NCBI GenBank assembly: GCA_002269645.1
Contig: NIVC01000337.1
Coordinates: 62,001-126,000, forward strand
From: Macrostomum lignano
Lineage: Eukaryota
Length of the DNA stretch: 64,000 bases
Direction: 5' to 3'
Part shown: positions 4,524 through 47,563 of the stretch, piece by piece
Layout of the letters: the number at the start of each line of letters is the position of its first letter
Numbering within the stretch: position 1 is the first letter of the stretch
The notes under the pieces: generated by a model
What the model was told of the DNA's origin: nothing
Database searches by the model: none
What the model saw: the letters and a program-made list of their open reading frames with translations, nothing else
Program-made: the position numbers and the translations under genes

Positions 4524-4679
4524 CTAAAAAATGCTGGTGCCTATAGAAGTAATTTGGAATGCATTGCGTGTTCACTTAATGCATTTCTGCCATAAAACTT
4601 TAGCCAAGTTTTTTTGCTGTTTATTTGGCCTATAGAATACGCCCGTATTTATGTCTTGCACCGGTGCCTTCGGCGCCGA

Positions 4680-6806
4680 AAGGAGTGCGGCGGCGCCAAA
4701 ATGAGTGCCTGCGGAGCCAAAATGAGTGCCTGCGGCTGCAAAATGAGTGCCTGCGGAGCCAAAATGAGTGCCTGCGGCTGCAAAATGAGTGCCTGCGGCG
4801 CCGAAAGGAGTGCCTGCGGCTACAAAATGAGTGCCTGCGGCTGCAAAATGAGTGCCTGCGGCGCCAAAATGAGTGCCTGCGGCTATAAAACGAGTGCCTT
4901 CAGCGCCAAAAGGAGTGCGGCGGCGCCGAAAGGAGTGCCTGTGGCTACAAAATGAGTGCCTGCGGAGCCAAAATGAGTGCCTGCGGCTCCAAAATGAGTG
5001 CTTGCGGTGTCAAAATGAGTGCCTGCGGCTCCAAAATGAGTGCTTGCGGTGTCAAAATGAGTGCCTGCGGCTACAAAATGAGTGCCTGCGGCTACAAAAT
5101 GAGTGCCTGCGGAGCCAAAATGAGTGCCTGCGGCTGCAAAATGAGTGCCTGCGGCGCCGAAAGGAGTGCCTGCGGCTACAAAATGAGTGCCTGCGGCTGC
5201 AAAATGAGTGCCTGCGGCGCCAAAATGAGTGCCTGCGGCTATAAAACGAGTGCCTTCAGCGCCAAAAGGAGTGCGGCGGCGCCGAAAGGAGTGCCTGTGG
5301 CTACAAAATGAGTGCCTGCGGAGCCAAAATGAGTGCCTGCGGCTCCAAAATGAGTGCCTGCGGCTCCAAAATGAGTGCTTGCGGTGTCAAAATGAGTGCC
5401 TGCGGCTCCAAAATGAGTGCTTGAGGAGCCAAAATGAGTGCCTGTGGCTGCAAAATGAGTGCCTGTGGCTGCAAAATGAGTGCCTGTGGCTACAAAATGA
5501 GTGCCTGTGGCTACAAAATGAGTGCCTGCGGCTGCAAAATGAGTGCCTGTGGCTATAAAATGAGTGCCTGTGGCTACAAAATGAGTGCCTGCGGTTGCAA
5601 AATGAGTGCCTGCGGAGCCAAAATGAGTACATCTGGACCCAAAATGAGTGCTTGCGGTGTCAAAATGAGTGCCTGTGGCTACAAAATGAGTGCCTGTGGC
5701 TACAAAATGAGTGCCTGTGGCTACAAAATGAGTGCCTGTGGCTGCAAAATGAGTGCCTGCGGCTCCAAAATGAGTGCTTGCGGTGTCAAAATGAGTGCCT
5801 GTGGCTACAAAATGAGTGCCTGCGGCGCCAAAATGAGTGCCTGCGGCGCCAAAATCAGGCCTGCGGCTCTAAAATGAGTGCCTGCGGCTACAAAATGAGT
5901 ACATGCGGAGCCAAAATGAGTGCCTGCGGCTGCAAAATGAGTGCCTGTGGCTATAAAATGAGTGCCTGTGGCTACAAAATGAGTGCCTGCGGTTGCAAAA
6001 TGAGTGCCCGCGGCTACAAAATGAGTACATGCGGAGCCAAAATGAGTGCCTGTGGCTACAAAATGAGTGCCTGTGGCTACAAAATGAGTGCCTGCAGCGC
6101 TAAAATGAGTGCTTGCGGCTACAAAATGAGTGCCTGTGGCTACAAAATGAGTGCCTGTGGCTACAAAATGAGTGCCTGCGGTTGCAAAATGAGTGCCCGC
6201 GGCTACAAAATGAGTGCCTGCAGCGCTAAAATGAGTGCTTGCGGTGTCAAAATGAGTGCCTGTGGCTATAAAATGAGTGCCTGCGGCTGCAAAATGAGTG
6301 CCTGCGGCTATAAAATGAGTGTCTGCGGAGCCAAAATGAGTGCCTGTGGCTACAAAATGAGTGCCTGTGGCTACAAAATGAGTGCCTGCGGCTATAAAAT
6401 GAGTGCCTGTGACTACAAAATGAGTGCCTGCGGCTGCAAAATGAGTGCCTGCGGCTGCAAAATGAGTGCCCGCGGCTACAAAATGAGTGCCTGCGGCTGC
6501 AAAATGAGTGCCTGCGGCTGCAAAATGAGTGCCTGCGGCTGCAAAATGAGTGCCTGCGGCTATAAAATGAGTGCCTGTGACTACAAAATGAGTGCCTGCG
6601 GCTGCAAAATGAGTGCCCGCGGCTACAAAATGAGTGCCTGCAGCGCTAAAATGAGTGCTTGCGGTGTCAAAATGAGTGCCTGTGGCTATAAAATGAGTGC
6701 CTGCGGCTGCAAAATGAGTGCCTGCGGCTATAAAATGAGTGTCTGCGGAGCCAAAATGAGTGCCTGTGGCTACAAAATGAGTGCCTGTGACTACAAAATG
6801 AGTGCC
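4680..6806. repeat. 21-bp satellite (CAAAATGAGTGCCTGYGGCTA)n, left part
   Basis: About 100 units; ends at GTGCC (6802-6806) where the BEL element is inserted. Confidence 0.97.
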
Positions 6807-7599
6807 TGTTAATGAAACGAAAAATTATATGGGTTTTTCCCATATTATCGTTTCCTTCTGCCAACAGTTCAGGAAGACAACGAACAATGGACCTGATGGT
6901 AACTTTCTCTGTGTGATCTCTAGAGTCACATTCTCAAACTTCAGGCGAGGATCTTTCCTCTTCAATCAGTATATTTTATAAGCTAGCACACTGTACGCGA
7001 GCAACGAGGAATAGGAGCAGTAGGGGGAGAGAGTAGGATTTCGAGGCCCAATAGGCAGTGTCGGTCAGAGGTTGTGCATGCATCACGCGAGGGTCGCATG
7101 GCTGGGCTTCTTGCTCGCCGATCATCATGACTATTTTTAGGCATGCAGATCTTGTGCATCTGGGGAGTTGCTGCCAAGGCTGGATGCTTGTTCACGCATC
7201 ACGCGCGTGTCGGCTGATTTCTCCCATCCTCTTGCTAACCGCGCCTTCGTTTCACTTCATTAACAAGAGATTCTTAAGAACTGAGAACTCAGCACTTGGC
7301 GGCTAGCCTCGCAATTGACAATCGTAGCAGAACAAAATCACCAAGGGGGTTTCGCGCAGTCTACTCTTAAGCTAGGTATATTTATTCTCAATATAATATA
7401 TGGCGGGGTTGACACAGGCTTTAGCGGGGGGGTTGTAGGTGTGCATGACTTGCAATGTACTCGTACGTTTAACCAAATCAGAATGGGGGGTGAGAAAGTG
7501 GCGTGAGGCGCGGAGGGGGGCAGGTAAATTAGCTAGGCAAATGATGAGTAATAGTACAGAAGTACAATGAAATAAGCAAAACCTTTACTCTTCAATCCA
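6807..7599 (-). repeat. BEL 3' LTR (6807-6812 plus 7260-7599), split by a solo LTR
   Basis: Matches 17754-18095 with about 5 differences in 342 bp by eye; preceded on the minus strand by the PPT. Confidence 0.9.
6813..7259 (-). mobile_element. Solo LTR (447 bp) of a second family, probably Ty3/gypsy
   Basis: Begins TGAA, ends TTCA; flanked by TTAA at 6809-6812 and 7260-7263; absent from the 5' LTR; TATAAAA on the minus strand near 6975-6981. Confidence 0.75.
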
Positions 7600-7612
7600 T
7601 ACCTCCCTTCTT
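7600..7612 (-). other. Polypurine tract of the BEL element
   Basis: AAGAAGGGAGGTA immediately before the TGGATTG start of the 3' LTR. Confidence 0.85.
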
Positions 7613-8269
7613 GGCATGAGCACATGCCAACAACAAAGAGCACCTCGAACAAAGATCTTAAAAATGGAAACATTCAATTATTATAGTACCACGTACTTTT
7701 CAGGAACAAAGTTAAATCGCAAGGATGAAATACGCAAGACGAAATGACAAAGTGAAAATGGGATCAAATAATTAGATGCAGTAAACGGATCAGGGGGGTG
7801 TGATAAATATTCGAACTGGATTAACAACAGAGTTGAACCTAAAAAGTAGCGTACAGTGCGATGAAATGAGCAAAGGGGATAAACGCTGAAAATGGAAAAA
7901 TTAACCGAACAGAGTATGCAAAACCTCTTCGCAACAAACGCCAAAAAAGCAAAAAAACACAAAAAACACAAAAACAGAAAACTAACACAAAAAACAGACA
8001 ACAAAAACTCCCAAAAATAGACAGCAGACATGAAAAAACACAATGCGATGGAACCAAACTGGATTAATGCGCAGGGAAGCAAAGCTCTCAAAAGCCACAA
8101 AAGAAAAATGTAGCGCCAACCCATCACCAAAATAGCTTGAAACTGAAAACATCGAAAATTGAAACGCATGCAACGGCTAATCAAAGTTAAGGAAATGATC
8201 GCTAAATCGCAGATTTTTTTCAATAAATTAAAGTTTGGCCAAAAATCTCAACTACTCCGATTCTCAAGC

Positions 8270-9135
8270 CTCCCTTCGTGATTAGCGGACGCAGCCTCGC
8301 AATCGGCCTCGCGGAGGCCTTGCCAACCAGCTGCACTTTTGCGACTCTCACCCGTCTCTCCGCGGCAGCCAGCAGGTGGTCGCGAATCGAGCTGTCTCGC
8401 CTTGCATGCAGATGCGCCGCTTTGAGCTCGAGCACCTGGTCGCCATGGTCGGGTCTAATCGTCTGACCGCCGATCGTTCCTCATTCATGCTAACGACTGT
8501 GCTCCGACCAGTCACCCTTTGTCCATGCCACCAGCTGTCAACCTCCGTCAGCTGCTTCGCTGAAGTTCCTCGAGACAACGTATCGGCTGGATGGAATTCG
8601 GTCGTGACACACCTCCACTGGTCCGGATCTGTGACAAACTTGGTCTCTCCAATGCGGTTCGCACCAAACGGCTGGTCAAATTTAAAGGTGCACTCTTTCC
8701 GATCGCTTCTTAATTCTACACCAAGCGTCTTGATGGATGGCATCGGTGTCCCTTCCAATGTTACTTCGGCTACTCGATCTTCTGGTGGCACTCTGCTCAA
8801 CAGTTCTCGCGAATCGGACATCCATTTCCTGGGGTGCATGCCTGCACGCTCCCAGCGAGTCTTCAACTCTTGAAACAGCTGGATCGCCTCAGCCTCTGAC
8901 CCGACCGAATCTAAACAATTGTCCATATAGGTGGAGTTGAGAACAGCGTCTGCAGCTACGAGCGTAATGGCAGCTCTTCTTTCAGGCGTTCCGCATGCTC
9001 ACGAACTACGAACTGAGCAAGAAACGGCGAGCTCGAGTTGCCGAAAACGATGCGGTTGGTCTCAAACATTTCAACAGGCTTGCTGGAGTCCATCTCACGG
9101 CATAGAAAGCTTTTGTAGAGTGTTCTACCTCCCGT
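8270..9135 (-). pseudogene. Decayed BEL pol remnant (partial RT, fragments of RNase H and integrase C-terminus)
   Basis: ETNRIVFGNSSSPFLAQFVV, AVLNSTYMDNCLDS, KTLGV, HPADTLSRG...WWHG, VRVAKV...RPIARLRPL; frameshift, stop and large internal deletions; no DDE core. Confidence 0.9.
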
Positions 9136-9235
9136 TAAAAAAGGAAAAAAGAAGATAATCGTATAATACTACTATAAGTAAGTAAGTACACGCATGTGCG
9201 CCTAAGCTTTGAATGAATCACGCTACCAGAAAAGA

Positions 9236-9976
9236 TGTTACCAGAATAATACGCCATGAGCCATTTTCCCCTTTTAGCGCAACACGTGAATTGTCATGAT
9301 ACTATTTTGGATCAAAAACTTGTCTATAAATACAAGCGATCTGAAGCGGTACCGGAGCCATTCTCCCCACGGAAGAGGAGCGCTCCGAAGAGGAAGCCTT
9401 AGGAGGACTTCCTGATCTACCAAGTCAATCGAGACTCGGTCGAGTTGTTGCGGTAAGCCTTCCTTATTTGCGCCCGTTGTGTTAGAGACGTCTCGCTCAA
9501 GTCTATTGAGACTTGAGTCTAATTGAGTCTGTTGAGACTCTTGAGTCTGTTTAGACTCCATTGGTTGCAGTCTCCAGAAGGACTGCCCCTGATAGATCTT
9601 AGAGGACTATCAGTGGTTTCCGGAGCTATACCTAGAGTGCATAGAGGCACTGCTAGAAGAAGGAGGCTTAATTTAGACCGCAGTTTGGCGCAGGGTACCC
9701 ATTGTTGCTACGAGGCCTCTGATTGGTCCTGACGGAAGATACCGGCCGGAAGAACTTATCGGAAGTACAAGAGGAACCAGGACCAGAGCAACTGAAGAAT
9801 CAAGGCGCCTGATCTACGAGATCTACTGACAAGTTCCTAGCGAGAACTACTCAAGAAATTCAAATCCGGATTAAAGGTAATTGAATACCTTCGTTTGACT
9901 TACTGGGTTGCCTAGCTGTTGAGCTAGAAGTGATTGTTCCTTGATTATCGAAAGTCGGGTAATAAGGAACACATCA
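9236..9976 (+). repeat. Putative single LTR of the nested gypsy module
   Basis: TGTTACC start after a purine run; TATAAATA 9325-9332; ends ...ACATCA, then AT, then PBS-like TGGTGATCTCGCCC (9979). Only one copy, so boundaries are inferred. Confidence 0.5.
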
Positions 9977-10091
9977 ATTGGTGATCTCGCCCTCTCGGCA
10001 CTACTCAAACCTTGAGCAATAGCCTGGCCAAGCTATTGTAAAGTGACGACAGAGCGACTTCATTAATTTTGCGCGCACGCGTTAGAGTTAA

Positions 10092-13000
10092 CACTTAAAA
10101 CTGAAATGCAAGGATACAGACAAGACACTATTCATCTCGGAACAAGAGATACCAGTCTACGTAAAGGAAGAAGACAAACAAACCTTCTTGGCAATCATCA
10201 ATGGAACGTATCAGCAACAAGAAAAACAGAATAGAAGACGACGTGACATCGAACGTCCCAAACTGGTGTCAAACCGGCTGTTGTCAGCAAAGATAACGGC
10301 TTTGGATCACAATCTACACAACCAGTTAAACCACTTGCATCGAACACTGGTCCAGCTAACTTGCAAAATGCACGCAATCAACTTAAATTATGCCAGACAA
10401 AACTACTATGTCAACCCTACGATGACTTTTCGTAAAATCACCGGAATGACGAACGTTTTGGCAGTTCCAATATACGAGCATCTGTTGATATACAAGTGCA
10501 CGCCGATACAGCACTTAAACATCTTGCCGTCAAACACGTCAACAACCTGCTACGATAAGCCAAGGATTGAAGCGTTCTACGAAGGAAAACGAATTCAGGG
10601 ATTCTTGGACACGGTACACAACATCATCGTTGGCACCGCAATACCGAGACCTTGCACCACGGCAGTAAACTACTATCAACTGGACAATGCACTACACGTC
10701 ATCAAAACAACTGGAACGACAGCAAACGTCACAGAACCGGAAGAAATCGTCGAGGAAAACTACAACATGGAGGATTTGAAAATCCGATTCAACAGAACGA
10801 AGTATACGCCATTCGCCGATATCCAACTTGACGAGATAACACCAGGATGGACGATCAACGACTTCTTGCAAGCGTTCATCACCCAACGCAAGATGATTCA
10901 CCAGCTGTTCACAAGAAAGGACAAAGGAACCGGGACAGGAAGATTTCCCGTCCTTGTTTCAATGGACAGCGCCATCAAATCATTTTGGACAAATAGCTTC
11001 TGGGAGCTGCTCAATGGAAGAGGCAGTCTCTATCAAGGATTCATCTTCGACGGTGCTTGCATTGTGTGGATTGTCACGGCAATCTTCATCATTTCATCGA
11101 TCGTACGGTGCTTCAGTCAAACTTGTCCAAGAGCTAAGAAGACAGTGAATGCCATAATGCAAAGAACGACAACGGAAAGCGACAACAGTTTAGAACTAAC
11201 AGAAACTGCACATTGTGAGGTTCAAGGGCAACCGACACTAGCAACGCGGCTATATCCATCGATTCCGACAACACCAACGGCACCAAGGATACAACCACCC
11301 AACTATCAAGCAGAACAGCACGAGCCAAAATGGCCGGAAAACTACGTCTGTACGCTACACGCCGAGATTGGCAAAGCAATGGCTCAGGTCATTGTCAACA
11401 ACTTACCATGTCGAGCACTACTGGATTCAGGCAGCTCGATCACAGTCATCTCGCAACAATTATGCAACAAGCAACGACTCGCGGTACGACCAGCAGCAAT
11501 CGCAGTTGCAGGAGCAGGAGGACATTCACTCAACATCCTAGGAAAAGCAGATATCGACTTGAAAATTGCTAATAAACAGCTGACGGTCCCGACGTACATC
11601 ATCGACAGACTACCAAACCAAGACGCCATCGTTGGAATCGACACGTTCAAGCAGCTTCAACTACCATTAACCTTCGACTTCAACAAGCAAACGTTTAGGA
11701 TCGACACGGTGGAGCAACCGCTGATCAACCAGATTCGAGTACTACCGAAAGTAACTCTGCAGCAAGATGTCATTATCCAGCCTGAAAGCGCATGCTGGGT
11801 CAGAGCGAAAACGACCAGCGCGGCAGAAGAAGCAATGATATTTGATCCACACAGGAGAGTCACGGCAAAACATCAAATCATGATGCCTACGGCACTAGTG
11901 CTGGTTGCAAAGGATAAGCAACTGCCAGTACAAATCTTCAACCCGAACACAGAAACGGTTCATCTACGACAAGGAAAGTGCATCGGTCATCTCAACACCC
12001 AAGCATCGGTTATGCTGATTGAACAAGCGACTCCACGACTAACAGAGGAAGAATTTCAAAAGAAGATCAATTTGGATGACAGCCCGATTACGGAACAGCA
12101 AAAGAGGAAAGTTCGACAGCTGTTGTGGAAGAACAACGAAGCCTTCTGCAATCATGATTACGACATCGGACGAGCCAAGGACATCAAACAGGAAATCAAA
12201 CTTCTGCCGCACACGGAACCAATTCAGTGCAAGCCGTACCCGATCGCCAAGCATCTGCAACAACACTTTGACGAAATCATCGATAAAATGCTAAAGCACG
12301 GCATCATCAGCAAAGCTATTTCGGCTTACTCCTCACCGTGCCTACTGGTACAGAAGAAGGAGACAAACGAAAGACGACTCGTATGCGACTTCAGACTGTT
12401 GAACAAGTACATACCGACGGATCAGCAAAGCCTACCGAAGATCTCCGAACTACTAGCAAAGCTCAACACGGCAAAATTGTTCACGGTGTTCGACCTACGT
12501 CATGGATTTTGGCAAATTGAAATCGAGAAAGAGTCACGACAGTACACGGCTTTCAAAACCTACAATGGACAAGTATACGAGTACAATCGATCGCCGATGG
12601 GACTTAGCAACAGCCCAGCAACGATGAGTCGACTAACAGCATACATGCTAGCAGGATGCACGAACCTGCTGCACTATGTCGACGACATTTTAGCCTACGG
12701 AGAGGATTTCGAGCGACTCTACGAAGCTACGGAGAAGGCCCTAGCGCTCATTCAACGCCAAGGTTTGAAGCTACAACCAACTAAATGCAAATTCTTCCGA
12801 GACAACGTGCGTTACCTGGGACATCAGGTGACAGCCAAAGGAATCTCACCGGACCCAGACAACGTGGAAAAGGTGAAGAAGTTTCCTACGCCAACCAGTA
12901 TAACGAAGGTCCAATCATTCCTTGGACTTGCGCAATACTTCAGGAAGTTCTTACCTAACTTCGCAAAGACAGCAAAGCCACTGTACGACCTGCTCAAGTT

Positions 13001-14888
13001 CGACAAATGGAAGCAAGACAACTGGACACAGAGACAACAGGAAAGTTTCGACGAAATCAAACGACAGCTGACATCAGACGCACTGCTACAGCATCCGGAC
13101 TTCGACAAGCCCTTCATCATCGAGACAGACGCCTCAGGAACGGGACTCGGAGCAGTCCTACTACAGGAAACCGAGGACAAGAAGGAACGACCTATTGCCT
13201 ACGTCAGTCGAGCACTCAAACCAAATGAAACAAAGTGGTCAGCTACGGAACGAGAGCTACTAGGAGTCTTGTTCGCCCTGCGACAGTTTCATTACTACAT
13301 CTATGGTTCTCCAATACAGACGATAGTACGCACGGATCATGCACCATTGACCTACGTCGTAACTACAAAAGGACAGACCAACAACCGACTCATCAGAATG
13401 ACACTCAAGATCCAGGATTACAACTACAAACTCGTCTACAAACCAGGAATTACCAACAAAGCCGCGGACGCCCTGTCAAGAGCCTATGAAGTCAACGCCA
13501 TTCATCCAATCCCTAACATCAAGGAGTTGGTGGATGAAACCGAGCGCGACAACTTCTACCAAGCGGTTAAAGACGACGACAAGAACATCAAACTCAGTCC
13601 CATGGAACGAAAATTCCTACGCAAGCAACGACAACACCTAACAATCAATAAGTCACGGCTCTACTGGATGAGCGACAATAAACCCAAGATCTACATACCA
13701 TATTCGTTTCGGCAAGCAATTCTCAACGAGCTACACGACAACCCACTCGCTGGACACCTGTCGGCAGCAAAGACCATCGCGAGAGTGGAACAATACTACT
13801 TTTGGCCAACTATGTACGGCGACATCAAGCAGTATTGCAACAACTGCCATTCATGTGCTGCATCAAAGACAGGACGACGACAGAAACCGCAGCTACAGTC
13901 CATTCCGAAGTCGACTACAATGGACTGTCTAAGCATCGACATCACCGGACCGCTACCACCGAGCTGTCTCCAGGGCATCGCCTACACCTACATTCTAACC
14001 GCCTTGGATATCTTCTCGAAGTTTGCTATCGCCATACCGATACCGGACATCACAGCTCAGACAGTGGCAATGAGTTTCTTCAACGAAATCATTTGCAAGT
14101 ACGGCACGCCGAAGAACCTCACATCGGACAACGGATCGCAGTTTACATCGCAACTGTTTCAGCAAGTCGTAAGGATTCTCAACATTACGCAGATCTACAC
14201 ATCGACCTACAATCCGAAGGCAAACATGGTTGAACGGTTTCACCGCAACCTGCACGAGATGATTACACATTTCGCGCACCAACAGCCGGAAGACTGGATC
14301 ATCTACCTGCAATCTGTAACAATGGCCTACAACAGCGCTATTCATCGATCAACGGACAATACGCCATTCTTCCTAATGTTTGGACGAGACTTCCAACCGC
14401 CGAATCTGCTCGCACAGCAATTGCTACCATCGCAGTACGTGGAAGTACCGACTTCCATTCAGAAATTCGTCACGCAACTACACCTCGCATGGAAGATCGC
14501 CAAGCACAACATTGACAACCAGGTGGCTCTGACCACCGGCAACGACGCGAGATCGACAACCCTGACGGCCGGCGACATCGTCTACCTACACTACCCGCCA
14601 CAGCAGACGCATAAACATGCACAGAAGTACAAAGGACCCTATCGAGTGGTCCAACTAACGTCACCAACAACGGCACGCCTGGCTAATGTACAAGATCCAC
14701 ATCAGCACCAGTTCTACGTACACATTCATCGACTAAAGAAGATCAACACTGACACAGCGACGTTTCTACCGACATTAGACAACGCTGATCGCACGCGTTC
14801 AACGAACCGCCACATCGCGACGAAGCACGAGGAGACTCAAACGACAGATGTGAGCCAGCCACATGGCTACAACCTACGACCACGCTAG
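10092..14888 (+). CDS. Ty3/gypsy Env(gB-like, N-truncated)-TM-PR-RT-RNaseH-IN single ORF, no gag
   Basis: Open from 10092 (after TAA 10089-10091). RRRR furin site 10233-10244; 4 ectodomain Cys and N-glycosylation sequons; TM about 11040-11105; LLDSGS (11424); DLRHGFWQ, YVDD (12675); TDASG/TDH/ADALSR; HHCC; DITGP/SDNGSQF/VERF; GPY; terminal YNLRPR. Confidence 0.92.
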   Translation, partial: HLKLKCKDTDKTLFISEQEIPVYVKEEDKQTFLAIINGTYQQQEKQNRRRRDIERPKLVSNRLLSAKITALDHNLHNQLNHLHRTLVQLTCKMHAINLNYARQNYYVNPTMTFRKITGMTNVLAVPIYEHLLIYKCTPIQHLNILPSNTSTTCYDKPRIEAFYEGKRIQGFLDTVHNIIVGTAIPRPCTTAVNYYQLDNALHVIKTTGTTANVTEPEEIVEENYNMEDLKIRFNRTKYTPFADIQLDEITPGWTINDFLQAFITQRKMIHQLFTRKDKGTGTGRFPVLVSMDSAIKSFWTNSFWELLNGRGSLYQGFIFDGACIVWIVTAIFIISSIVRCFSQTCPRAKKTVNAIMQRTTTESDNSLELTETAHCEVQGQPTLATRLYPSIPTTPTAPRIQPPNYQAEQHEPKWPENYVCTLHAEIGKAMAQVIVNNLPCRALLDSGSSITVISQQLCNKQRLAVRPAAIAVAGAGGHSLNILGKADIDLKIANKQLTVPTYIIDRLPNQDAIVGIDTFKQLQLPLTFDFNKQTFRIDTVEQPLINQIRVLPKVTLQQDVIIQPESACWVRAKTTSAAEEAMIFDPHRRVTAKHQIMMPTALVLVAKDKQLPVQIFNPNTETVHLRQGKCIGHLNTQASVMLIEQATPRLTEEEFQKKINLDDSPITEQQKRKVRQLLWKNNEAFCNHDYDIGRAKDIKQEIKLLPHTEPIQCKPYPIAKHLQQHFDEIIDKMLKHGIISKAISAYSSPCLLVQKKETNERRLVCDFRLLNKYIPTDQQSLPKISELLAKLNTAKLFTVFDLRHGFWQIEIEKESRQYTAFKTYNGQVYEYNRSPMGLSNSPATMSRLTAYMLAGCTNLLHYVDDILAYGEDFERLYEATEKALALIQRQGLKLQPTKCKFFRDNVRYLGHQVTAKGISPDPDNVEKVKKFPTPTSITKVQSFLGLAQYFRKFLPNFAKTAKPLYDLLKFDKWKQDNWTQRQQESFDEIKRQLTSDALLQHPDFDKPFIIETDASGTGLGAVLLQETEDKKERPIAYVSRALKPNETKWSATERELLGVLFALRQFHYYIYGSPIQTIVRTDHAPLTYVVTTKGQTNNRLIRMTLKIQDYNYKLVYKPGITNKAADALSRAYEVNAIHPIPNIKELVDETERDNFYQAVKDDDKNIKLSPMERKFLRKQRQHLTINKSRLYWMSDNKPKIYIPYSFRQAILNELHDNPLAGHLSAAKTIARVEQYYFWPTMYGDIKQYCNNCHSCAASKTGRRQKPQLQSIPKSTTMDCLSIDITGPLPPSCLQGIAYTYILTALDIFSKFAIAIPIPDITAQTVAMSFFNEIICKYGTPKNLTSDNGSQFTSQLFQQVVRILNITQIYTSTYNPKANMVERFHRNLHEMITHFAHQQPEDWIIYLQSVTMAYNSAIHRSTDNTPFFLMFGRDFQPPNLLAQQLLPSQYVEVPTSIQKFVTQLHLAWKIAKHNIDNQVALTTGNDARSTTLTAGDIVYLHYPPQQTHKHAQKYKGPYRVVQLTSPTTARLANVQDPHQHQFYVHIHRLKKINTDTATFLPTLDNADRTRSTNRHIATKHEETQTTDVSQPHGYNLRPR

Positions 14889-15008
14889 AGTTTAGAGAAC
14901 AACCCCGTGTAGTGACCGGGATAAAGAATAGCACTACAGCTTCGCAAGCTTGTCGTAAAAGGCGACTAATCCGAGCGACACAAAGACAGCGACAAATTGA
15001 CGACAATT

Positions 15009-15434
15009 ATGGGCAACGCACTGTCAAAACAGGCGCCCCAGCCTCAGCAGCTATATGACTGCCCGATATGTTTAACTGATGACTTGGCTGTCAAGCCACC
15101 GACTATTTGCATCAATGGACATAAAGTTTGCGGACAATGTTTAAGTGATTCACACTATATTCAGCCCTGGCAGAGTTGTCCCCTCTGTAGAGATAGTTTG
15201 CGACAATGTGCCTATTGTTATTCTTGGCGCACGTTTCAATATTGTAACCACCAACATTTTATTTGCATGCACTGTTTGAAGCAAACCGCTAGTAGGGGCA
15301 TTATAGGATGCCCCTTATGTAACAGTATGCCCCGCGAAAACACTTTTAAGAAATGGTGTCGGATTATACCTGACCCAGCGCGTTGTTTATCCGTTTACAC
15401 TATGCACACCTTAACCGCTATGAGTATCGGCTGA
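15009..15434 (+). CDS. Tandem RING-finger protein (141 aa) with N-myristoylation motif; accessory ORF of the gypsy module
   Basis: MGNALSKQ start; CPIC-x12-CINGHKVCGQC-x12-CPLC followed by CAYC-x8-CNHQHFICMHC-x11-CPLC; C-terminus lies at the junction with BEL sequence. Confidence 0.8.
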   Translation: MGNALSKQAPQPQQLYDCPICLTDDLAVKPPTICINGHKVCGQCLSDSHYIQPWQSCPLCRDSLRQCAYCYSWRTFQYCNHQHFICMHCLKQTASRGIIGCPLCNSMPRENTFKKWCRIIPDPARCLSVYTMHTLTAMSIG

Positions 15435-17724
15435 GTATCTCATAGTTATTCGAGCGAACTTTCGCCTCTGGCTTCCACGGAATTCCCACCTGGTATCGGC
15501 CGTTTGTTAGCTTTAATGAAGACTTGGCTTGCTGGACTGCAGCTTGCTCATCCGCTGTCCAATTTTGATCTTGAGCTGGCCGGATTTCTTCGACTTCCCA
15601 GAACTTGTGCAGCACTGGTGACAGCATCTCCTCGCTGGTGACACAGAAAAAGGTGCTGGCCAAGTTTTTCTGATGCTGAATCTGTTCTACTGGACCCACA
15701 CCTGTCCATCCAAGGGGAGTCAAACGTGCCTGTGGCTCCCCAGGGCCACCGCGAACTTCTCGGTAGGACACGTGTAACTCCGCATGATCCACTCCTATCA
15801 GCAGGTCTATGAGATGCGGTGCATGGAGCTGAGGAAATGGAATGCGCTCCAGATGTTTCCAATCTGCTGCCGTCGTCTGCCAATCCGTAGCCTTCAACTT
15901 CCCGGTGACGCTGTCTGTCGTGAATGCCGTGATCGGACGACTCAGACTTCCATCTACACTTTCGAGCGTCATCGTAACCGGAGCTGTCAAGAATGTCTCT
16001 GTCTGTCCGTTCAAAACGTTCACTTTCACTTGCTCCACATTGCCCTCCAGTCCCAGAGCTTCCGCAATCTCCGCATTCACATACGTCCTTGTACTCGCGT
16101 CGTCCAACAGTGCGTTCACCTTCACTACACGGCCGCCTGCCTTGAGAACTACTGGAACTGTTCGCAGCGACGTTGCACTTCCACTTCCTGCCATCATAGT
16201 TACGGCGGCTCCTTTGCGACCCGACTCAGCGTTCTTTTTGCCTCCTTCGGTCGGAGAATTCTTCTTCGACTCAGTTTTTGCAGCCTCGTCAGAATGCAGC
16301 AAGCGGTGGTGAAACTTGTTGCATTCACCTATTCCACATCGGCGTCCATGACGGCATATCCGAGCAGCATGACCGCGAGCTAAGCAGCAAAAGCATGATT
16401 TCGAATCTTGCGCAGCCTTCCACCGATTTTCAATTGACAGCTGTCTAAATGTTGGACACTTCCACAGCTCATGTTGATCTTGACACAGTATACAAGATTT
16501 TGACGGAGACGCTTGTTGATGATCTGCAAGAAACGTTTTGGACCGCGTCTCCTTCTTAACTTTCTCTTCACTCGTCACACCGTGCACAATCTCCATGGCT
16601 TCTGTCTGGAAAGCGGCCTCCATCAGCACCCACTCACGTAACATCTTTACGCTCTCTTGCCTATGTCCTTCGAATAGCCAACGCCGGTAACGCGCCACCA
16701 TCTGCTCAGGGAGCTTCTTCTGCAACTTTGCGTACAACAACCCGTCAGTCAATTCTGAGACCTTACCAGACTCTTCGAGATTTACAACTGCGACATCTAA
16801 CAGATTAGAGAATTGCTTAAGCTCTTTTGCATTGGTGGAGCGGATGGGTGGAAAGTTATCGAGCTCTTCAAGATACAGAGCGATACGTCGGCGGCTGCCC
16901 CCAAATTCGCGTTCCAATCTGTCTTTGGCAGCCTCGTAAGCAGCGGCAGAGTGACCCAGATGTTCGACTAATTTCAAAGCCGGCCCTTGAAGATATTGAC
17001 GGAGTTGAAGCAATTTGAACTCCGGTGTGGCAGGAGCTCTATCAATACAAGCAGTAAAGGCGGCTTTCCAAGATTCGTACTGCTGCTTTTCGCCGCCGAA
17101 CTTTGGGATCTCTACACGCCGAAGCATCTTCCAAAGATCCTTTGCTAACTCGGCTTCACCGCTGCTAGTCTGAGAATGGCCCGCCTCACTTACAGAGTCA
17201 TCAATGCTACTGGCACTCACAACCGGCATTGCTGTAGCCGCCGTCGCCGCCGTCGCCGTCGTTGCAGTCGTCGCAGTCGCCGCAGTCGCCGCAGTCGCGG
17301 CAGTCGCGGCAGTCGCCGCAGGCGCAGCAGTCACGGCAGTCTGATGGGCAGTGATTAATTGAGTGACACATTTCATAGTGTCTTGAAACTGCTGCTCCAC
17401 TTGATCCAGCTCGTCCAGAAGTTTGTCTCGAGCTTCTTCTGTGGCTTCTTGCTGAAGGAGCTCATCATAGAATTCGTCGAGCAGCTTCACGCACTCTTCG
17501 TGTGCTGCAGTGGCTGCATCGCACGCTTGCTGGATCGCTCCATGATCGGTTTCGCTCTGTAGCAACAGTACCAGCCGGTTTCGAGTCCTAGTTGCTGCAG
17601 ACTTCGTTCTTGCCTTCACTCGTCGAAACTGTTCGATGCGAAGCCGCTCCTCAGTGCTGATCTCTTTTTCTTGTTCATCTTCTGAGCAGCCAGTCTGCTG
17701 CTGATTCAATTCGTGGCTGGCCAT
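15418..17724 (-). CDS. gag: BEL/Pao Gag-protease (768 aa), truncated at the insertion junction
   Basis: IPKFGG...WKAAF...YLQGPA (DUF1759-type); three Zn knuckles; LLDDAS protease; YQVGIPWK...NNYE just before the junction; no internal stops. Confidence 0.93.
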   Translation of the reverse strand: MASHELNQQQTGCSEDEQEKEISTEERLRIEQFRRVKARTKSAATRTRNRLVLLLQSETDHGAIQQACDAATAAHEECVKLLDEFYDELLQQEATEEARDKLLDELDQVEQQFQDTMKCVTQLITAHQTAVTAAPAATAATAATAATAATATTATTATAATAATAMPVVSASSIDDSVSEAGHSQTSSGEAELAKDLWKMLRRVEIPKFGGEKQQYESWKAAFTACIDRAPATPEFKLLQLRQYLQGPALKLVEHLGHSAAAYEAAKDRLEREFGGSRRRIALYLEELDNFPPIRSTNAKELKQFSNLLDVAVVNLEESGKVSELTDGLLYAKLQKKLPEQMVARYRRWLFEGHRQESVKMLREWVLMEAAFQTEAMEIVHGVTSEEKVKKETRSKTFLADHQQASPSKSCILCQDQHELWKCPTFRQLSIENRWKAAQDSKSCFCCLARGHAARICRHGRRCGIGECNKFHHRLLHSDEAAKTESKKNSPTEGGKKNAESGRKGAAVTMMAGSGSATSLRTVPVVLKAGGRVVKVNALLDDASTRTYVNAEIAEALGLEGNVEQVKVNVLNGQTETFLTAPVTMTLESVDGSLSRPITAFTTDSVTGKLKATDWQTTAADWKHLERIPFPQLHAPHLIDLLIGVDHAELHVSYREVRGGPGEPQARLTPLGWTGVGPVEQIQHQKNLASTFFCVTSEEMLSPVLHKFWEVEEIRPAQDQNWTADEQAAVQQAKSSLKLTNGRYQVGIPWKPEAKVRSNNYEILSRYS

Positions 17725-17731
17725 TTACCTG

Positions 17732-17749
17732 AACCACGCTCTGCTACCA
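17732..17749 (-). other. Primer binding site, initiator tRNA-Met type
   Basis: TGGTAGCAGAGCGTGGTT, 4 nt after the 5' LTR; complementary to the metazoan tRNAiMet 3' end pattern AACCNNNCUCUGCUACCA. Confidence 0.85.
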
Positions 17750-17753
17750 AAAA

Positions 17754-18095
17754 TATTAACAAGAGATTCTTAAGAACTGAGAACTCAGCACTTGGTGGCT
17801 AGCCTCGCAATTGACAATCGTAGCAGAACAAAATCACCAAGGGGGGTACACGCAGTCTACTCTTAAGCTAGGTATATTTATTCTCAATATAATATATGGC
17901 GGGGTTGACACAGGCTTTAGCGGGGGGGTTGTAGGTGTGCATGACTTGCAATGTACTCGTACGTTTAACCAAATCAGAATGGGGGGTGAGAAAGTGGCGT
18001 GAGGCGCGGAGGGGGGCAGGTAAATTAGCTAGGCAAATGATGAGTAATAGTACAGAAGTACAATGAAATAAGCAAAACCTTTACTCTTCAATCCA
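17754..18095 (-). repeat. BEL 5' LTR (342 bp)
   Basis: Near-identical to the 3' LTR; terminal CA reads TA in this copy. Confidence 0.92.
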
Positions 18096-19108
18096 GTGCC
18101 TGTGGCTGCAAAATGAGTGCCTGTGGCTACAAAATGAGTGCCTGTGGCTCCAAAATGAGTGCTTGCGGTGTCAAAATGAGTGCTTGCGGTGTCAAAATGA
18201 GTGCCTGCGGCTCCAAAATGAGTGCCTGCGGCTCCAAAATGAGTGCTTGCGGTGTCAAAATGAGTGCCTGCGGCTCCAAAATGAGTGCCTGCGGAGCCAA
18301 AATGAGTGCCTGCGGCTACAAAATGAGTGCCTGTGGCTACAAAATGAGTGCCTGCGGCTGCAAAATGAGTGCCTGCGGCTACAAAATGAGTGCCTGTGGC
18401 TACAAAATGAGTGCCTGTGGCTACAAAATGAGTGCCTGTGGCTACAAAATGAGTGCCTGCGGCTGCAAAATGAGTGCCTGTGGCTACAAAATGAGTGCCT
18501 GTGGCTACAAAATGAGTGCTTGCGGTGTCAAAATGAGTGCTTGCGGTGTCAAAATGAGTGCCTGCGGAGCCAAAATGAGTGCCTGCGGCTGCAAAATGAG
18601 TGCCTGCGGAGCCAAAATGAGTGCCTGCGGAGCCAAAATGAGTGCCTGCGGCTACAAAATGAGTGCCTGTGGCTACAAAATGAGTGCCTGTGGCTGCAAA
18701 ATGAGTGCCTGTGGCTACAAAATGAGTGCCTGTGGCTACAAAATGAGTGCCTGTGGCTACAAAATGAGTGCCTGTGGCTACAAAATGAGTGCCTGCGGCT
18801 GCAAAATGAGTGCCTGCGGCTACAAAATGAGTGCCTGTGGCTACAAAATGAGTGCCTGTGGCTGCAAAATGAGTGCCTGTGGCTACAAAATGAGTGCCTG
18901 TGGCTACAAAATGAGTGCCTGCGGCTGCAAAATGAGTGCCTGCGGCTGCAAAATGAGTGCCTGCGGCTACAAAATGAGTGCCTGTGGCTACAAAATGAGT
19001 GCCTGCGGCTGCAAAATGAGTGCCTGCGGCTGCAAAATGAGTGCCTGCGGCTACAAAATGAGTGCCTGTGGCTACAAAATGAGTGCCTGTGGCTACAAAA
19101 TGAGTGCT
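18096..19108. repeat. 21-bp satellite, right part (same array as 4680-6806)
   Basis: Same unit, resumes in register at the TSD. Confidence 0.97.
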
Positions 19109-20029
19109 AATATCACCAATTCTTTAAATAAAGTAGAAATAAATAGTAAAATCAGTTAAGCTGATTCCGCATCATACTACTCACAGACTCTACAAAAGTA
19201 GTCAGTACTAAATCGAAATTTTAATCCTCTATTTTGTTGACTTCTCCTGATCCTGTATTGGATTTTTTACAGCCAAAGCTGCGCGACTTTTTCAATCCCT
19301 TTTCTAGCAGCGAGCGGCCCAGCGAGCCTCGGCGATCGATGGCCAAGAGTCATAAAAATCAATCTCCCGGATGCCGGCCTCCCAGACCAAGGCAAATTGA
19401 TCATCGAATGCCCGCCTCCCCGATCGGCCCCGAATTCCCCCGAGGCCCCGCCTGGGGCTGCAGCAGGAGAAGCAAAGAGCGGAGCAGAAATCCTGTTGAG
19501 AAGAGGAGAAGAGCCTCTGAGTCTCTGAGAGTGAGGGGGCGGTGCGCGGACTCGGTGGCTCCCTACTTGGGGGGGGGGGTTGCGCCTAGCACCAGTGGCG
19601 CTACAGCCAAAGTACATTAGCCCCCAAAATTTGGGAAACAGGGTGCCAAAGCCAAACCTGTTGTGAGGGGGGGGGCTCCCTTCTCCTCTGGCTACGGCCC
19701 TGTGCTGGGGCGCAGGGATCCCATGGGCGAAGAGTTCAGTTATCCCCTCGCCATTTTCCCACTCTGCATTAATCTCGGGCCGAAAATCTCATATTCTCTT
19801 ATCAAAAAAACAAAAAAATGGTTCCCAGGTGCACATAAATCCCCCGTGTCGTTTTTAGATTTACCGGTCCATGCTCAGTTCCCTTTGCGCGAGAATTCTT
19901 CAAAGAGACTCCGCTTTGGCCCTCTTTGCCGGCTCGGTTTTTGGCGTATAAGTGAAAATTTCCCCTACTGAAGCAGATTTTGTGAAAAATTTGCTTAAAA
20001 AATAGGCATAGCACCTTTCTCAAACATAG

Positions 20030-40622: not shown

Positions 40623-42347
40623 ATGAGCAACAGCCCGGCCAGTACAGAACTGACAGCTCGAACGCCGGACTCACCCGCATCGATCTTGCGGACTCCCGGC
40701 TCCAGCAGCCGCGCCAGCTGGTTCGTCGCCACGCCGACTCGGGTCACCCTGCCCGGTGGCGCCATCGACGTGCACGACGTGCTCATCCTGACTCACTTTG
40801 CCAAGCAGCCGCTGGTTGACTTCGGCCGGGTGCCGGTCGGCCGCCTGGCCACCCAGCGGCTGCTGATCCAGAATCCGCACAGCTACGATCAGGAGGTGCG
40901 CATCAGCCGCCTGCCCGGCGAGAAGCTCGGCATCGCCTGCGTCGAACAGGAATTCGTTGTCAACGCCGAGGGCGAGTACATGCTCAGCTTGACTTGGACA
41001 CCGCGTCGGCCCGGCGGCATGCGCGAACTGGTCGCCTTCCGGGTTGGCGATGTGTACAACCTGCAGGCGGTGCTGCTGGGCTCAGCGGTCCCTGCGGCAG
41101 CCACAGCGGCCGGCCGGAAGCGGAAAACCTGGGCGGAGCAGCGGCTGGTTGCCGGGCAGGGCGAATCGGCCAATTCGGCCAGCCAAGCAGCAGAGAAGGA
41201 GAACCTGGCCGCTGCTGCCGTTCAGTCTGCCGACACCGTCCAGTCGCCCGTGTTCAACGTTGCCAAGGCTCGCCTGGCCGCTACAGTGTCCGGAGCGGTG
41301 AAGTGCAGCCGAAGGACACCGGCGCTCCCGGCCCAGCCGGAGGAGTCGTCAGAGTCGGCGGTGGCGGCGGCGGCGGACCAGTCGGCGGTCAGCAAGAAGC
41401 CGCGCCTGGCCGACATCAGCAGCAGCGCCAGCATCGTCAGCGGCAGCAGCCATGCGGGCTCGTCACTGCTGTCGCAGCTGCTGCACTCAAAACTGGCGGC
41501 CAAGCTTCGCCCCCGGTTTCACCACCAGCAGCACCCGAGCCCTGTGGAGCGGTTCCGCAGGCGGCACAGTCTGCGCCGGACTCTCACCGGCCGTTTCGCG
41601 ACCGCCGCCACTGCTGCTGCTGCTTTGACGGCCGCGTCAACGTCCGCGTCGGAGGTGGCGATCAGCAGCCCACTGAGCGGTCGGGTTGTCAAGCGTCGCT
41701 CGACCGGCCGCGCTGTTCGCCGAGCCCCGAGGCCTATGGTCGCCGCCGCAGTGGCCGAGTCGCCGTCATCAGCCGTTTCGGACGCGTCTGACCTCAGCAA
41801 CCTGTCGATGCTGGCGCCGACCACGCCGCGATCGACCGCGGCCTTGGCTTCGGCGTCGATGGCGGATCAGCGGAGCTGCAGCGTCTTCTACGACGAGCGC
41901 TGGCGTGAGAAGCAGGTGAGGAACAGCCAGGGGGTTCGAGTCGATGCAGACAATGGAAGATGTCGGAGCCTGTGTATTCCTTAAATCCAAACCTTTTGAA
42001 AGATCTCAAGGACTGCACTTTTTTTAACTCCGCAGGAATTCGGTCTTCAGCAGTGGCTGAACTACCTGCTCACGCCCGGCCTTGCCCTGCGCTGCTGCCA
42101 AGGCGAGGAGCAGTCCGCTAGTGCCACCGCTGCTGCTGCTGCCGCCGCCGCCGCCGCAGACACGACCGGCCCCGCGCCCACCAAAGAGGCCGTCTCGCTG
42201 CGCGCCTACGCCGATTTTCGCACACTTGCCGCGCTCAGAAGCCGCGGGCGCCGGCTGATGACCAGCGACAGCTTTGTGTCCGTGATCTGCCGGGTGGAGC
42301 GAGAGGTATGCACTGAGCTTTGCTGGCTTCTGATGGGTTGGTGCAGT

Positions 42348-42387
<40 letters not shown>

Positions 42388-45300
42388 AGTCTGTCTGTCT
42401 GTGTCTGTATCTCTGACACGACCTGCTCGCCACGAACCCTGTGCAGGTGAGCGAAGGCCGACTTCGCGTCCGTCAAGACGTTTGCTTTCGTGCCGACCGC
42501 GGACTCCGGGCCCGCCTAGTAGACTTTTACTTGGCCTTCCATCCGCTGTGGCTTCGCCTAGCGCTCGAGTCGCTGTTTGACCAGCCGATCCTGACCTCTG
42601 CCGCGGCGACGCCCTCGGACGGCAGCGACGCCGGTGGCGCAGCGGCACGACGAACTCCGCTGCGGGCCTTCATTCTTAACCGGGTGCTGTGGAGTCCCGG
42701 CCTGGCTGACAGGTTCGCCATGCCTGGAGTCTGCAATCTGTACAGAAAGGGCTTCGATGCCGAGCTGTCCAAGTGAGTCTGCTAGTTGCTGACCGCTAGC
42801 TAATTAGGATAATGCGATTTGAATATTATAATATTGCAAAGTGAGATCAGATTAAGACAGTCGAAGTTGTTTGCCATATTTAGGGTGAGATAAGAGGAGA
42901 TTGGGACGGTGAGCAATGAAGTAATAATTTTAGCAGGGTGATAATAGATATATTTAAAAATGTGATAATCGATTAGATCTAGAAGGAAAGAATTGATTAT
43001 CTCCAAGGTGAGAATAGATTATCTATAAAGTAAGAATAGATAATCTAAAATGTGAGAATAGATTATTTGAAATGTGAGAATAGATGAGTTTAGGATGCTT
43101 AGAATACGAAATACTATTAAGGTGGAAATATATTAGTTAAGGCAGGTGACATTAGATAAGATTACAAATGGGATAAGATATTGAAGATGAGATTAGATGA
43201 GTTAAGAAAGGAGAGGAAAGGAGTGCCGGCTTAATGCCGACTTCCCACTCCGTCAGGTACGTGCTGAACAAATTCCTGGCCATCGTGTACTTCCTGGACC
43301 GGGCCAAAACTGACCGCCTCATCGACTTCGATCCCTGCCTGTTTACTAAGCGATCGCAGCACAAATCCACCAAAGAGGTGGTGACCGCCTTCACCAGGGA
43401 CTACCTGTCCGGCGAGGGTGACGTCATCAAACACCTGGGCTACATGGGCTACCGGTTGAGCCATGCGCAGAAGCCTCTTGACGAATATCAGTTCGGCGTC
43501 ACCAACTTGGCCGTGGATTTGCGCGACGGAATTCGACTGTGCCGGACGCTGGATATTCTGACCGGCGGCCGGACAGCCCTGTCCGGACAGGTCCGCTGCC
43601 CGGCCATAAGCCGGCTGCAGAAGATTCGCAACTGCCAGGCCGCGTTCGAGGCGCTAAAAGGCCTTGGCGTGTCGCTGGATTGGACACCAGGTGAGATATT
43701 TATTTGGGGCAGGTGAGATTAGATCAGATATCAAGCGGTGAGGTTAGATAAGATATCAAACAGTGAGATTAGATGAGATATCAAGCGATGAGATTAGATG
43801 TGATATCAAGCAATAAGATTAAATGTGATATCAAGTGGTGAGATTAGATCAGCTATCAGACGGTGAGATTATATAAGATATCAAACAGTGAGATAAGATC
43901 AAATATCAAACAGTGCGATTAGATGGGATATCAAGCGGTGAGATTAGAGGAGATATCAAGCGGTGAGATTAGAGGAGATATCAAGCGGTGAGATTAGATA
44001 AGATATCAAACAGTGAGATTAGATCAAATATCAAACAGTGAGATTAGAGCAGATATCAAACGGTAAGACTAGATTTGAAAATAAAGATAAGATTAGATAA
44101 TTGGAAATTTTAGATCAGAGTATGCCATAAAATATTCAAGTGACAAAAACATTAAAAATTTTTGCTGAGAAATGGAACAGTGAGGGCATTGGAATGTAGT
44201 TGGCAAATTCCCTCTATATCGCCGGAACTTCCCCGTGCTCCCGTTGTCAAGGCAACCCGATCGATCCGCGCGACATTGTCGACGGTCACCGGGAGAAGAC
44301 GCTCAGCCTGCTGTGGCGCTGTCTGGCCCGTTTCTCCCTGGCCGAGGACCCGGGCCTCGTTGGCCGGCTTCTCTGCGAGATCCGCGCTCTTCGCCGCGCA
44401 CTCCGCACCCGGGGCGCCGCCTGCCCGCCGGCGCCGGCCGACCCGAGCCCGGCCAGCCTCCTGCCCTGCTGGGCCGCCTGCGTGGCCGCCTTCGACTGGC
44501 CGGCGGGCCGGCCGCCTCCGGCCGAGGACGACAGTCGCGTTGTCATGCGGTTGCTAAGGCACTACGGCGCGGCACCGCCAGCTGCTGACGATAACAATGA
44601 CGGCGCCGATAGTTGGCGCGCGGTGGCCGAGCGCCTGGCTGAGCTCGGACAGTGTCCGGCGTTGATCATGCCGAATTCCTCGGACAGGCCGGACCGCTGC
44701 ATGCTGCTCGCCCAGCTGGCCGCCCTGGCCGGCAGCCTGCTCAACCTCAACGCCGAGTCCCGAGCCGCCAGAGTCATCCAAGCGGCCTGGCGCCGACGCT
44801 GCGCCAGCCTGGCGGGCCCGCCAGCCGCCCAGGAGGACCGGGTTGACGCTCTGCCAGCGAAAGTCAGCGCCGAGTCGGCCGTCTTTGAGTTCAACATCGG
44901 CGTGTGGCCGGGCACGCCGGGGCCGGCCAGCAAGCCAGCGGACACGCCCAGCCGCTGCCTGCTGGACGTACAGGCTATTCGGCGCGCCCAGGCTGCCAGC
45001 GCCATCCAGCGCTGGTTTCGGCGCGCGCGCCAGATTCGAATTGGCCGGATTCGGCGCGAGATTGAGCGACGCAGACGGCGACGCGCCATTTTGGTCATCG
45101 TCACCAACTACCAGATTAGCAGGCGCAACCGGTTCTTTGCCCTACTCCAGGATCACGTGACTCGCTGGCTGGCCAACAGGCAGGCGGCCGGCAGACGCAT
45201 CCAGCAGTTCTGGCGCGCATATCGGATCAAACGGATTGAGCTTGAGAGGCTGCGGGCGGAGCGTCTGGAACGGGAAACACTGGCGGCCTGCCAAATACAG

Positions 45301-46976: not shown

Positions 46977-47029
<53 letters not shown>

Positions 47030-47064
47030 GCCTGTCTGTCTGTCTGTCTGTCTGTCTGCCTGCC

Positions 47065-47105
<41 letters not shown>

Positions 47106-47124
47106 GCCTGTCTGTCTGTCTGCC

Positions 47125-47165
<41 letters not shown>

Positions 47166-47248
47166 GCCTGTCTGTCTGTCTGCCTGTCTGTCTGTCTGCC
47201 TGTCTGTCTGTCTGCCTGTCTGTCTGTCTGCCTGTCTGTCTGTCTGCC

Positions 47249-47289
<41 letters not shown>

Positions 47290-47326
47290 GCCTGTCTGTC
47301 TGTGTGTGCCTGTCTGTCTGTCTGCC

Positions 47327-47367
<41 letters not shown>

Positions 47368-47400
47368 GCCTGTCTGTCTGTCTGTCTGTCTGTGTGTGCC

Positions 47401-47489
<89 letters not shown>

Positions 47490-47492
47490 GCC

Positions 47493-47563
<71 letters not shown>

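Follow-up and report, generated by a model that had tools for sequence, protein, structure and literature searches.

Positions 15009-15434 on the forward strand of a 64,000-nucleotide stretch of Macrostomum lignano DNA (assembly GCA_002269645.1, contig NIVC01000337.1, 62,001 to 126,000; hereafter the window) hold an ATG-initiated open reading frame (ORF) of 141 amino acids (aa) with the N-terminus MGNALSKQ. It begins 120 nt downstream of the pol stop codon (14886-14888) of a gypsy-type long terminal repeat (LTR) retrotransposon. Two Cys/His modules, C18-C60 and C67-C104, follow one another in the protein, with Pfam matches to zf-RING_2 (E 4.2e-5) and Sina_RING (E 6.3e-4) that both lie under the curated cut-offs. 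A preliminary description, made from the letters of the window alone, had reported this ORF, its distance from pol and its two consecutive C3HC4-like modules, and our analysis bears out each of these points. However, that description had taken the ORF as whole, and had overlooked a helical C-terminal domain, paralogous genes and an upstream RNA element. The window in fact holds the first part of a longer gene, RING1, which stands at the head of a group of related genes that we refer to as the 3' RING cassette.

The truncation is evident from copies on four other contigs, which match the window with 99.7% identity over 10097-15429 and cease to match there. In other copies the full-length frame encodes 222 aa (P0002), of which the window keeps residues 1-140, and the stop codon of the window ORF belongs to junction/BEL sequence, not to RING1 itself. 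The window copy is a deletion remnant with RING1 cut short. In the complete arrangement, a paralogue of 210 aa, RING2 (P0003), begins about 70 nt beyond P0002, and the 3' LTR comes next. A search of the same genome, in which 150 of 218 candidates were scored, yielded 151 matches with identities as low as about 30%; this establishes RING1 as a repeated, real coding sequence and not a chance ORF. The features at the locus are as follows.

14904..14969, forward strand: conserved non-coding element with a predicted H-type pseudoknot and two hairpins
15009..15429, forward strand: RING1 ORF, codons 1-140 of the 222-aa gene, by match to other genomic copies; it comprises an MG leader (residues 1-16), RING module a (18-61), RING-like module b (67-104) and the start of the helical domain
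15430..15436, no strand: deletion junction, 7 nt matching neither element, which supplies the ORF stop

The gene recurs behind pol in other copies and families, a co-occurrence that the preliminary description had proposed as a check. Among loci chosen to span the match list, families with 72-75% integrase identity to the window have RING1 in the same place at 37-42% identity, together with one or two paralogues. Two to three paralogous ORFs, each with two RING modules, thus make up the cassette in the interval from pol to the 3' LTR. All of its proteins share one plan, with RING a, the RING-like module b and a helical domain containing an invariant Trp-Pro; full-length RING1 measures 216-222 aa. 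More distant gypsy families (reverse transcriptase (RT) identity about 40%) have a cassette ORF in 0 of 11 loci, and at four loci of distant gypsy families we noted unrelated ORFs of 254-318 aa in the same post-pol slot (L094:2820-3599 +, L099:6355-7116 -, L095:6102-7055 - and L102:2953-3906 +), two of them starting at CAG|ATG and none with a credible Pfam match. A UniRef gene model from Macrostomum lignano contains a near-identical RING2. Beyond this gene model, a hidden Markov model search of 1.84 billion representative sequences found three full-length and two partial homologues on short contigs (P0005-P0008, P0016), its remaining matches being to the RING only. Word-indexed searches returned nothing for P0002 or A3, and P0005 found only itself; in scans of viral and metagenome contigs, 0 of 77 and 0 of 70 stretches, respectively, were confirmed. 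No host source gene for the RING ORFs was seen in searches that intron-split genes would escape. Lone RING ORFs might have pointed to domestication by the host, but those tested match element flanks, and this explanation was rejected.

The cassette has been kept by selection, as the preliminary description had supposed for an element-borne RING gene; neither absence from related elements nor lack of selection, which it had named as grounds for doubt, was found. The ratio of nonsynonymous to synonymous substitution rates (dN/dS) is 0.10-0.28 for RING1 (10 of 45 pairs unsaturated) and 0.14-0.49 for the paralogues (9 of 45), 35 of 45 pairs having been dropped from each table as saturated, and neutrality was rejected in all four disjoint RING1 pairs (Fisher p 3.6e-6 to 6e-26). 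It is therefore highly improbable that the element carries the ORF as neutral cargo, a fragment captured from a host or a virus. Broken cassettes in many young copies would fit such cargo, but strong purifying selection largely refutes it, the frames stay open at 40% identity, and acceptors and start context are conserved. RING1 diverges more than integrase (73 vs 96% identity, and about 40 vs 73% in a more distant comparison). Faster evolution combined with duplication would suit a gene in conflict with the host, of which both are often typical.

Conservation over long times is accompanied by recent loss. Among the 30 best loci, 18 have a RING1 of only 113-144 aa and no RING2, and in another subfamily RING1 stops at codon 71 in 6 of 6 tiles. 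These cassette-broken subfamilies are young, with partial LTR overlaps 98.5-100% identical in all 17 tiles tested. The main frame is also broken in most of them (13 of 14 in one set of loci), possibly in part through assembly error, and three cassette-broken loci in all keep it unbroken. Given purifying selection on the one hand and young subfamilies with a broken cassette on the other, the cassette is accessory: it has long been under selection, but a copy can do without it in cis. A mirror image of the cassette-less subfamilies was also observed: in the subfamily of L064, L086, L088 and L089, most of env/pol is gone and both RING ORFs are intact, and the LTRs of L064 are identical.

In module a of 23 of 23 aligned proteins, C18, C21, C34, H38, C41, C44, C57, P58, C60 and R61 are invariant, all eight zinc ligands being retained, and a hydrophobic residue follows the second Cys. 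The CPxCR motif is likewise present in module a of all 23, whereas the equivalent Arg of module b is present in none. Active RINGs show this combination of a hydrophobic residue and CPxCR, which provide the E2 contacts and the 'linchpin' Arg. The first loop of module b has 8-9 residues, one residue under the minimum of the usual RING consensus. From RING biochemistry we take module a to be the E2-binding module and module b to be structural. The Siah-like C-x-x-G-H pattern pointed out in the preliminary description holds for the window ORF, but its Gly is not family-wide and occurs in 14 of 23 aligned members. Searching Protein Data Bank (PDB) sequences with the family profile gave the SIAH1 RING as best match (E 5.1e-6), with TRIM5, TRIM21 and RING1B among the other top matches; module b matched the RINGs of BRE1, MAT1 and RNF213 weakly. 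AlphaFold (AF2) models are confident, with predicted local distance difference test scores of 86.7 for RING1, whose leader is disordered, and 92.0 for residues 62-222, and fold searches returned RING domains, none at E<=0.001.

Several known groups resemble the cassette proteins in part. SIAH/Sina and TRIM E3 ubiquitin ligases share the sequence, fold and C-x3-H spacing of module a, but the SIAH match is confined to profile positions 5-51 and Pfam scans of the cassette proteins found no Sina domain; the cassette proteins moreover have a second RING-like module and a helical domain after RING a, with a C-terminus modelled as helical. The fold and feature searches rank small viral RING proteins, from large DNA viruses, at the top, and in one of this group (P0012) the tandem modules are spaced alike across 91 columns. 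These matches are weak, however (E>0.001, with Atlas recognition under threshold), and leave the helical domain uncovered, so we treat them as a likeness only.

The N-myristoylation pattern is not a family-wide property. An MG start occurs in 13 of 19 distinct full-length RING1 proteins, and Gly2 is absent in the other 6; two families that share the same Gag-Env-Pol plan lack it. The MG-bearing proteins form one clade (support 100/99 for four representatives, in a tree that leaves out P0148), outside which RING1 starts with MAN, MAK or MDC and the outside homologue P0005 with MTA. Within the clade the motif varies between MGNALSK and MGNAQSR, and G2, N3, A4 and S6 are conserved, with Ser6 encoded by four different codons. 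Codons 2-7 show a proportion of nonsynonymous differences of 0.08 against 0.38 for synonymous ones (four sequences). The confinement of Gly2 to one clade and the selection on codons 2-7 indicate that the motif is probably functional there, yet a late addition. The canonical pattern read from the window thus stands for one subclade and fails for the family.

The myristoylation motif also invites comparison with arenavirus Z, of which RING1 could be a counterpart, a matrix protein replacing a missing myristoylated matrix domain. MGxxxS occurs with a RING in both, the element's Gag starts MARR without Gly2, and a Lassa Z chain is among the weak fold matches (rank 37, E 0.42). However, Z is described as a 90-99-aa protein with a single RING and C-terminal late domains (PMC3509680), whereas RING1 has 222 aa and two modules, is dispensable in cis and lacks PTAP and PPxY (0 of 9 proteins). 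YxxL occurs in 4 of 9, none of them with Gly2, and the MG-bearing proteins have none of the three motifs (0 of 4 checked). Gag, in turn, is predicted to be membrane-tied through its own in-frame transmembrane (TM) segment. With Gly2 missing from two families and P0005, and young subfamilies spreading with broken cassettes, we regard the matrix-like role raised in the preliminary description as very unlikely.

We consider RING1 to be an accessory RING-type E3 ubiquitin ligase that works in trans against a host defence factor, a reading to which we assign a probability of roughly 0.5 and which keeps the E3 or anti-defence role of the preliminary description as the best available. On this account the gene would be the first in a small cassette of accessory E3s located 3' of pol in one Gag-Env-Pol gypsy lineage. 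Module a would recruit E2~ubiquitin, and module b and the helical domain would bind a substrate or partner; the target would most probably be a host factor involved in restriction or silencing. Given such a target, the proteins would act in trans, so that copies without the cassette could ride along; one subclade would have added a myristoyl anchor, moving RING1 to membranes. Position, paralogy, purifying selection, a RING fold, a clade-limited MG leader and loss in young subfamilies are the observations on which this account builds; translation, ligase activity and substrate are what we infer from them.

Several points weigh against this interpretation. RING1 scores 24.2 bits against a Pfam cut-off of 27.3; the profile searches proposed earlier recognized the RING through SIAH1 while leaving RING1 under the curated thresholds, and one paralogue, L064, exceeds the Pfam RING threshold (32.6 vs 27). 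A fold search with the helical domain gave no significant match (best Z 6.5, root-mean-square deviation 3.0 over 83 aligned residues, within background). RING folds also serve non-E3 roles, for example in arenavirus Z. Finally, it is by inference that the target would be a host factor, rather than one of the element's own proteins. In the latter case the E3 would ubiquitylate the Env tail or Gag, for budding through the endosomal sorting complex required for transport or for the timing of polyprotein turnover. The late-domain-like motifs that follow the env TM helix would suit such a role (YPxI occurs in all 6 frames compared and PTAP in 5 of them), and the MG leader would bring RING1 to the same membrane. 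PPxY, however, can recruit host Nedd4 ligases (PMC3509680), which would make an own E3 unnecessary, the 11 outgroup gypsy loci do without a cassette, and two families lack Gly2. This makes ligase action on the element's own particle quite unlikely.

How the cassette genes would be expressed is suggested by the sequence around their starts. A 66-nt element before RING1 is conserved while its flanks vary. It is predicted to form a pseudoknot from a CCCG/CGGG stem and a loop pairing with CACTACA. In the structure fit, 97.4% of cells are paired, with two double-sided changes in the pseudoknot stem and 29-42% in slid controls, values that rest on only three stem variants and on a structure drawn from the same sequences; an equal pseudoknot arose in 5 of 300 shuffles. 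A model of the motif gave 31 matches in 46 sources, all within the gypsy lineage, and 0 in 11 outgroup loci, and Rfam holds no family for it (best E 4.3). In all rows compared, the RING1 start codon is the first ATG downstream of the motif. Among second- and third-position ORFs, 9 of 15 have their start codon in CAG|ATG itself and another three lie no more than 2 nt from it, whereas RING1 does so in 0 of 13. The gene model P0004, which is a model only, joins LTR donors (9453 and 9877 in the window) to CAG|ATG starts. The cassette ORFs may thus be made from subgenomic messages, the later ones by splicing to CAG|ATG and RING1 through the pseudoknot element or through an acceptor within it, for which CACAG/TACAG could serve. 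Spliced-leader trans-splicing, described for 30% of Macrostomum lignano genes (PMC8629364), would be an alternative to splicing from the LTR donors. Contigs of four runs, presumed to be RNA, show no joint at either RING start and no loose end there among those listed (a further 50 exist), a result that does not bear on expression, as their reference also lacks the first candidate donor. Translation of RING1 by readthrough of the pol stop was rejected: the two share a reading frame, yet further stops separate them (13 open codons upstream).

The RNA element bears on a further possibility, that the proteins are regulators like Rev or CERV that bind element RNA, perhaps at the pseudoknot, and control the export of unspliced RNA or splicing. 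Export of genomic RNA from the Caenorhabditis elegans gypsy element Cer1 requires CERV, a spliced accessory protein containing a Cys-rich loop (PMC10309623), and here the structured RNA always accompanies the cassette, with 31 motif matches and neither feature in the 11 outgroup loci. The domains described for CERV in that paper are not RINGs, however. In the cassette proteins an E2-type surface is invariant, a myristoyl anchor is ill-suited to a nuclear job, and the motif persists even in cassette-broken copies, so it may serve the RNA alone. A regulator of this kind is unlikely, if still worth keeping in view.

A broader version of the E3 interpretation is tentative and, in its full extent, doubtful. 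Two to three double-RING E3s, perhaps as heteromers, would destroy a host silencing or restriction factor; the pseudoknot would drive the RING1 RNA by blocking 5'-3' decay or by starting internal translation; and the MG leader would re-aim one subclade's protein to membranes. The cassette would then be an accessory unit in the style of complex viruses within an animal LTR retrotransposon, and the cassette-less subfamilies would be cheaters living on its proteins in trans. Few retrotransposon-encoded counter-defence proteins are known in animals, and an element-borne E3, if confirmed, would point directly to the host factor removed, while the pseudoknot may represent a new mechanism by which genes downstream of pol are expressed in LTR elements. 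Macrostomum lignano offers transgenesis and stem-cell models, and comparisons are built in between the cassette, natural non-myristoylated orthologues and cassette-less subfamilies.

Additional ORFs in gypsy elements are already known. Rotifer gypsy ORF3 proteins include lipases and exonucleases (PMC5408684), sORF2 is a myristoylated accessory ORF (PMC11952523), and CERV is a further case. As described, these resemble the cassette in being extra ORFs, some of them 3' of pol, spliced or myristoylated. They differ in encoding lipases, exonucleases, FAST-like TM proteins or an export factor, and no RING protein; CERV, by its description, has H, M and G domains produced from a spliced gag-region mRNA. 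The literature searched contained no report of RING accessory genes in LTR retrotransposons; Repbase or an earlier survey might hold the cassette. The main text of PMC12801592 has no match to RING, and its supplements may describe it.

The element itself is a catalogued one. In complete copies, a single 2498-aa Gag-Env-Pol frame runs in the order gag, env, protease, RT, RNase H and integrase, with a CCHC knuckle at 236, a hydrophobic segment at 620, an env furin site at 948 and a TM helix at 1216. A 3.3-kb internal deletion at 10096/10097 removed gag and half of env from the window copy, so the Env-Pol fusion of the preliminary description is a leftover of this frame and not native; the BEL Gag that it proposed as a partner belongs to an unrelated element hosting the gypsy insertion. 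Elements with GAG-ENV-POL order and a gB-type env have been described in flatworms, nematodes and bryozoans (PMC13524379). That source lists Mlig_errantivirus_2 from Macrostomum lignano, with an 864-bp LTR and ENV_HSV as env; gene order, LTR length (about 864 bp) and an identical 12-nt primer-binding site match ours, and by these sequence features the window element matches this flatworm errantivirus. The 3' RING cassette and the pseudoknot do not feature in the text searched: RING gave no match in the main text or seven supplementary files, and zinc finger and myristoyl gave none either. Three of three families matched Pfam Monjiviricetes_fusion with their env part (E 8e-6 to 5e-5, below cut-off), and the env part found no match among PDB sequences. 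LTR pairs are 99.7-100% identical, with target-site duplications of 4-5 bp in 3 of 3 copies checked, which indicates that the family moved recently. The surrounding features are as follows.

7259..9111, reverse strand: remaining half of the BEL element, with an RT fragment and an LTR at 7259-7599 that is 98.8% identical to the one at 17755-18095
9114..9976, forward strand: 5' LTR of the gypsy element, TG...CA, with a TATA box near 9325 and candidate splice donors at 9453 and 9877
9979..9990, forward strand: primer-binding site, the same 12 nt as in the PMC13524379 supplement
10096..10097, forward strand: junction of the 3.3-kb deletion (rest of leader, gag and env N-half lost)
10097..14888, forward strand: 3' part of the Gag-Env-Pol frame, with env C-half (furin site, TM helix), protease, RT, RNase H and integrase
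11250..11306, forward strand: late-domain-like motifs LYPSI, PTAP and PPNY between env TM helix and protease
15437..18095, reverse strand: unrelated BEL/Pao element, gag-protease (DUF1759) and one LTR (17755-18095)

Two further BEL copies hold about 390 bp between the halves seen in the window, and the simplest reading is therefore an insertion of the gypsy element into a BEL element, followed by a single deletion that took the gypsy 3' end. Late-domain-like motifs (YPxI, PTAP, PPxY) between env TM helix and protease were also noted at L040, L082, L091, L087, L063 and L058; their position within a single Gag-Env-Pol frame suggests that Pol may be packaged on the Env tail.

On both sides of the BEL element (window 4557-6812 and 18029-19159) lies an array of a 21-bp tandem repeat, and one gypsy copy (C282) is likewise inserted in this repeat. 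Dense nested clusters of fragments from the gypsy lineage occur at C2121:1-70000 of the same genome assembly (G000) and on C87, C1130, C272, C4009 and C1405; those of C2121 all lie on the same strand, and the clusters resemble self-targeted insertion or a locus like a PIWI-interacting RNA cluster. At L108:531-4196, ORFs beside a RING-bearing gypsy fragment presumably represent a Polinton/Maverick-type DNA polymerase region, judging by motif. Elsewhere in the window, 40623-47967 contains parts of a host gene with an ASH domain and IQ motifs, resembling ASPM.
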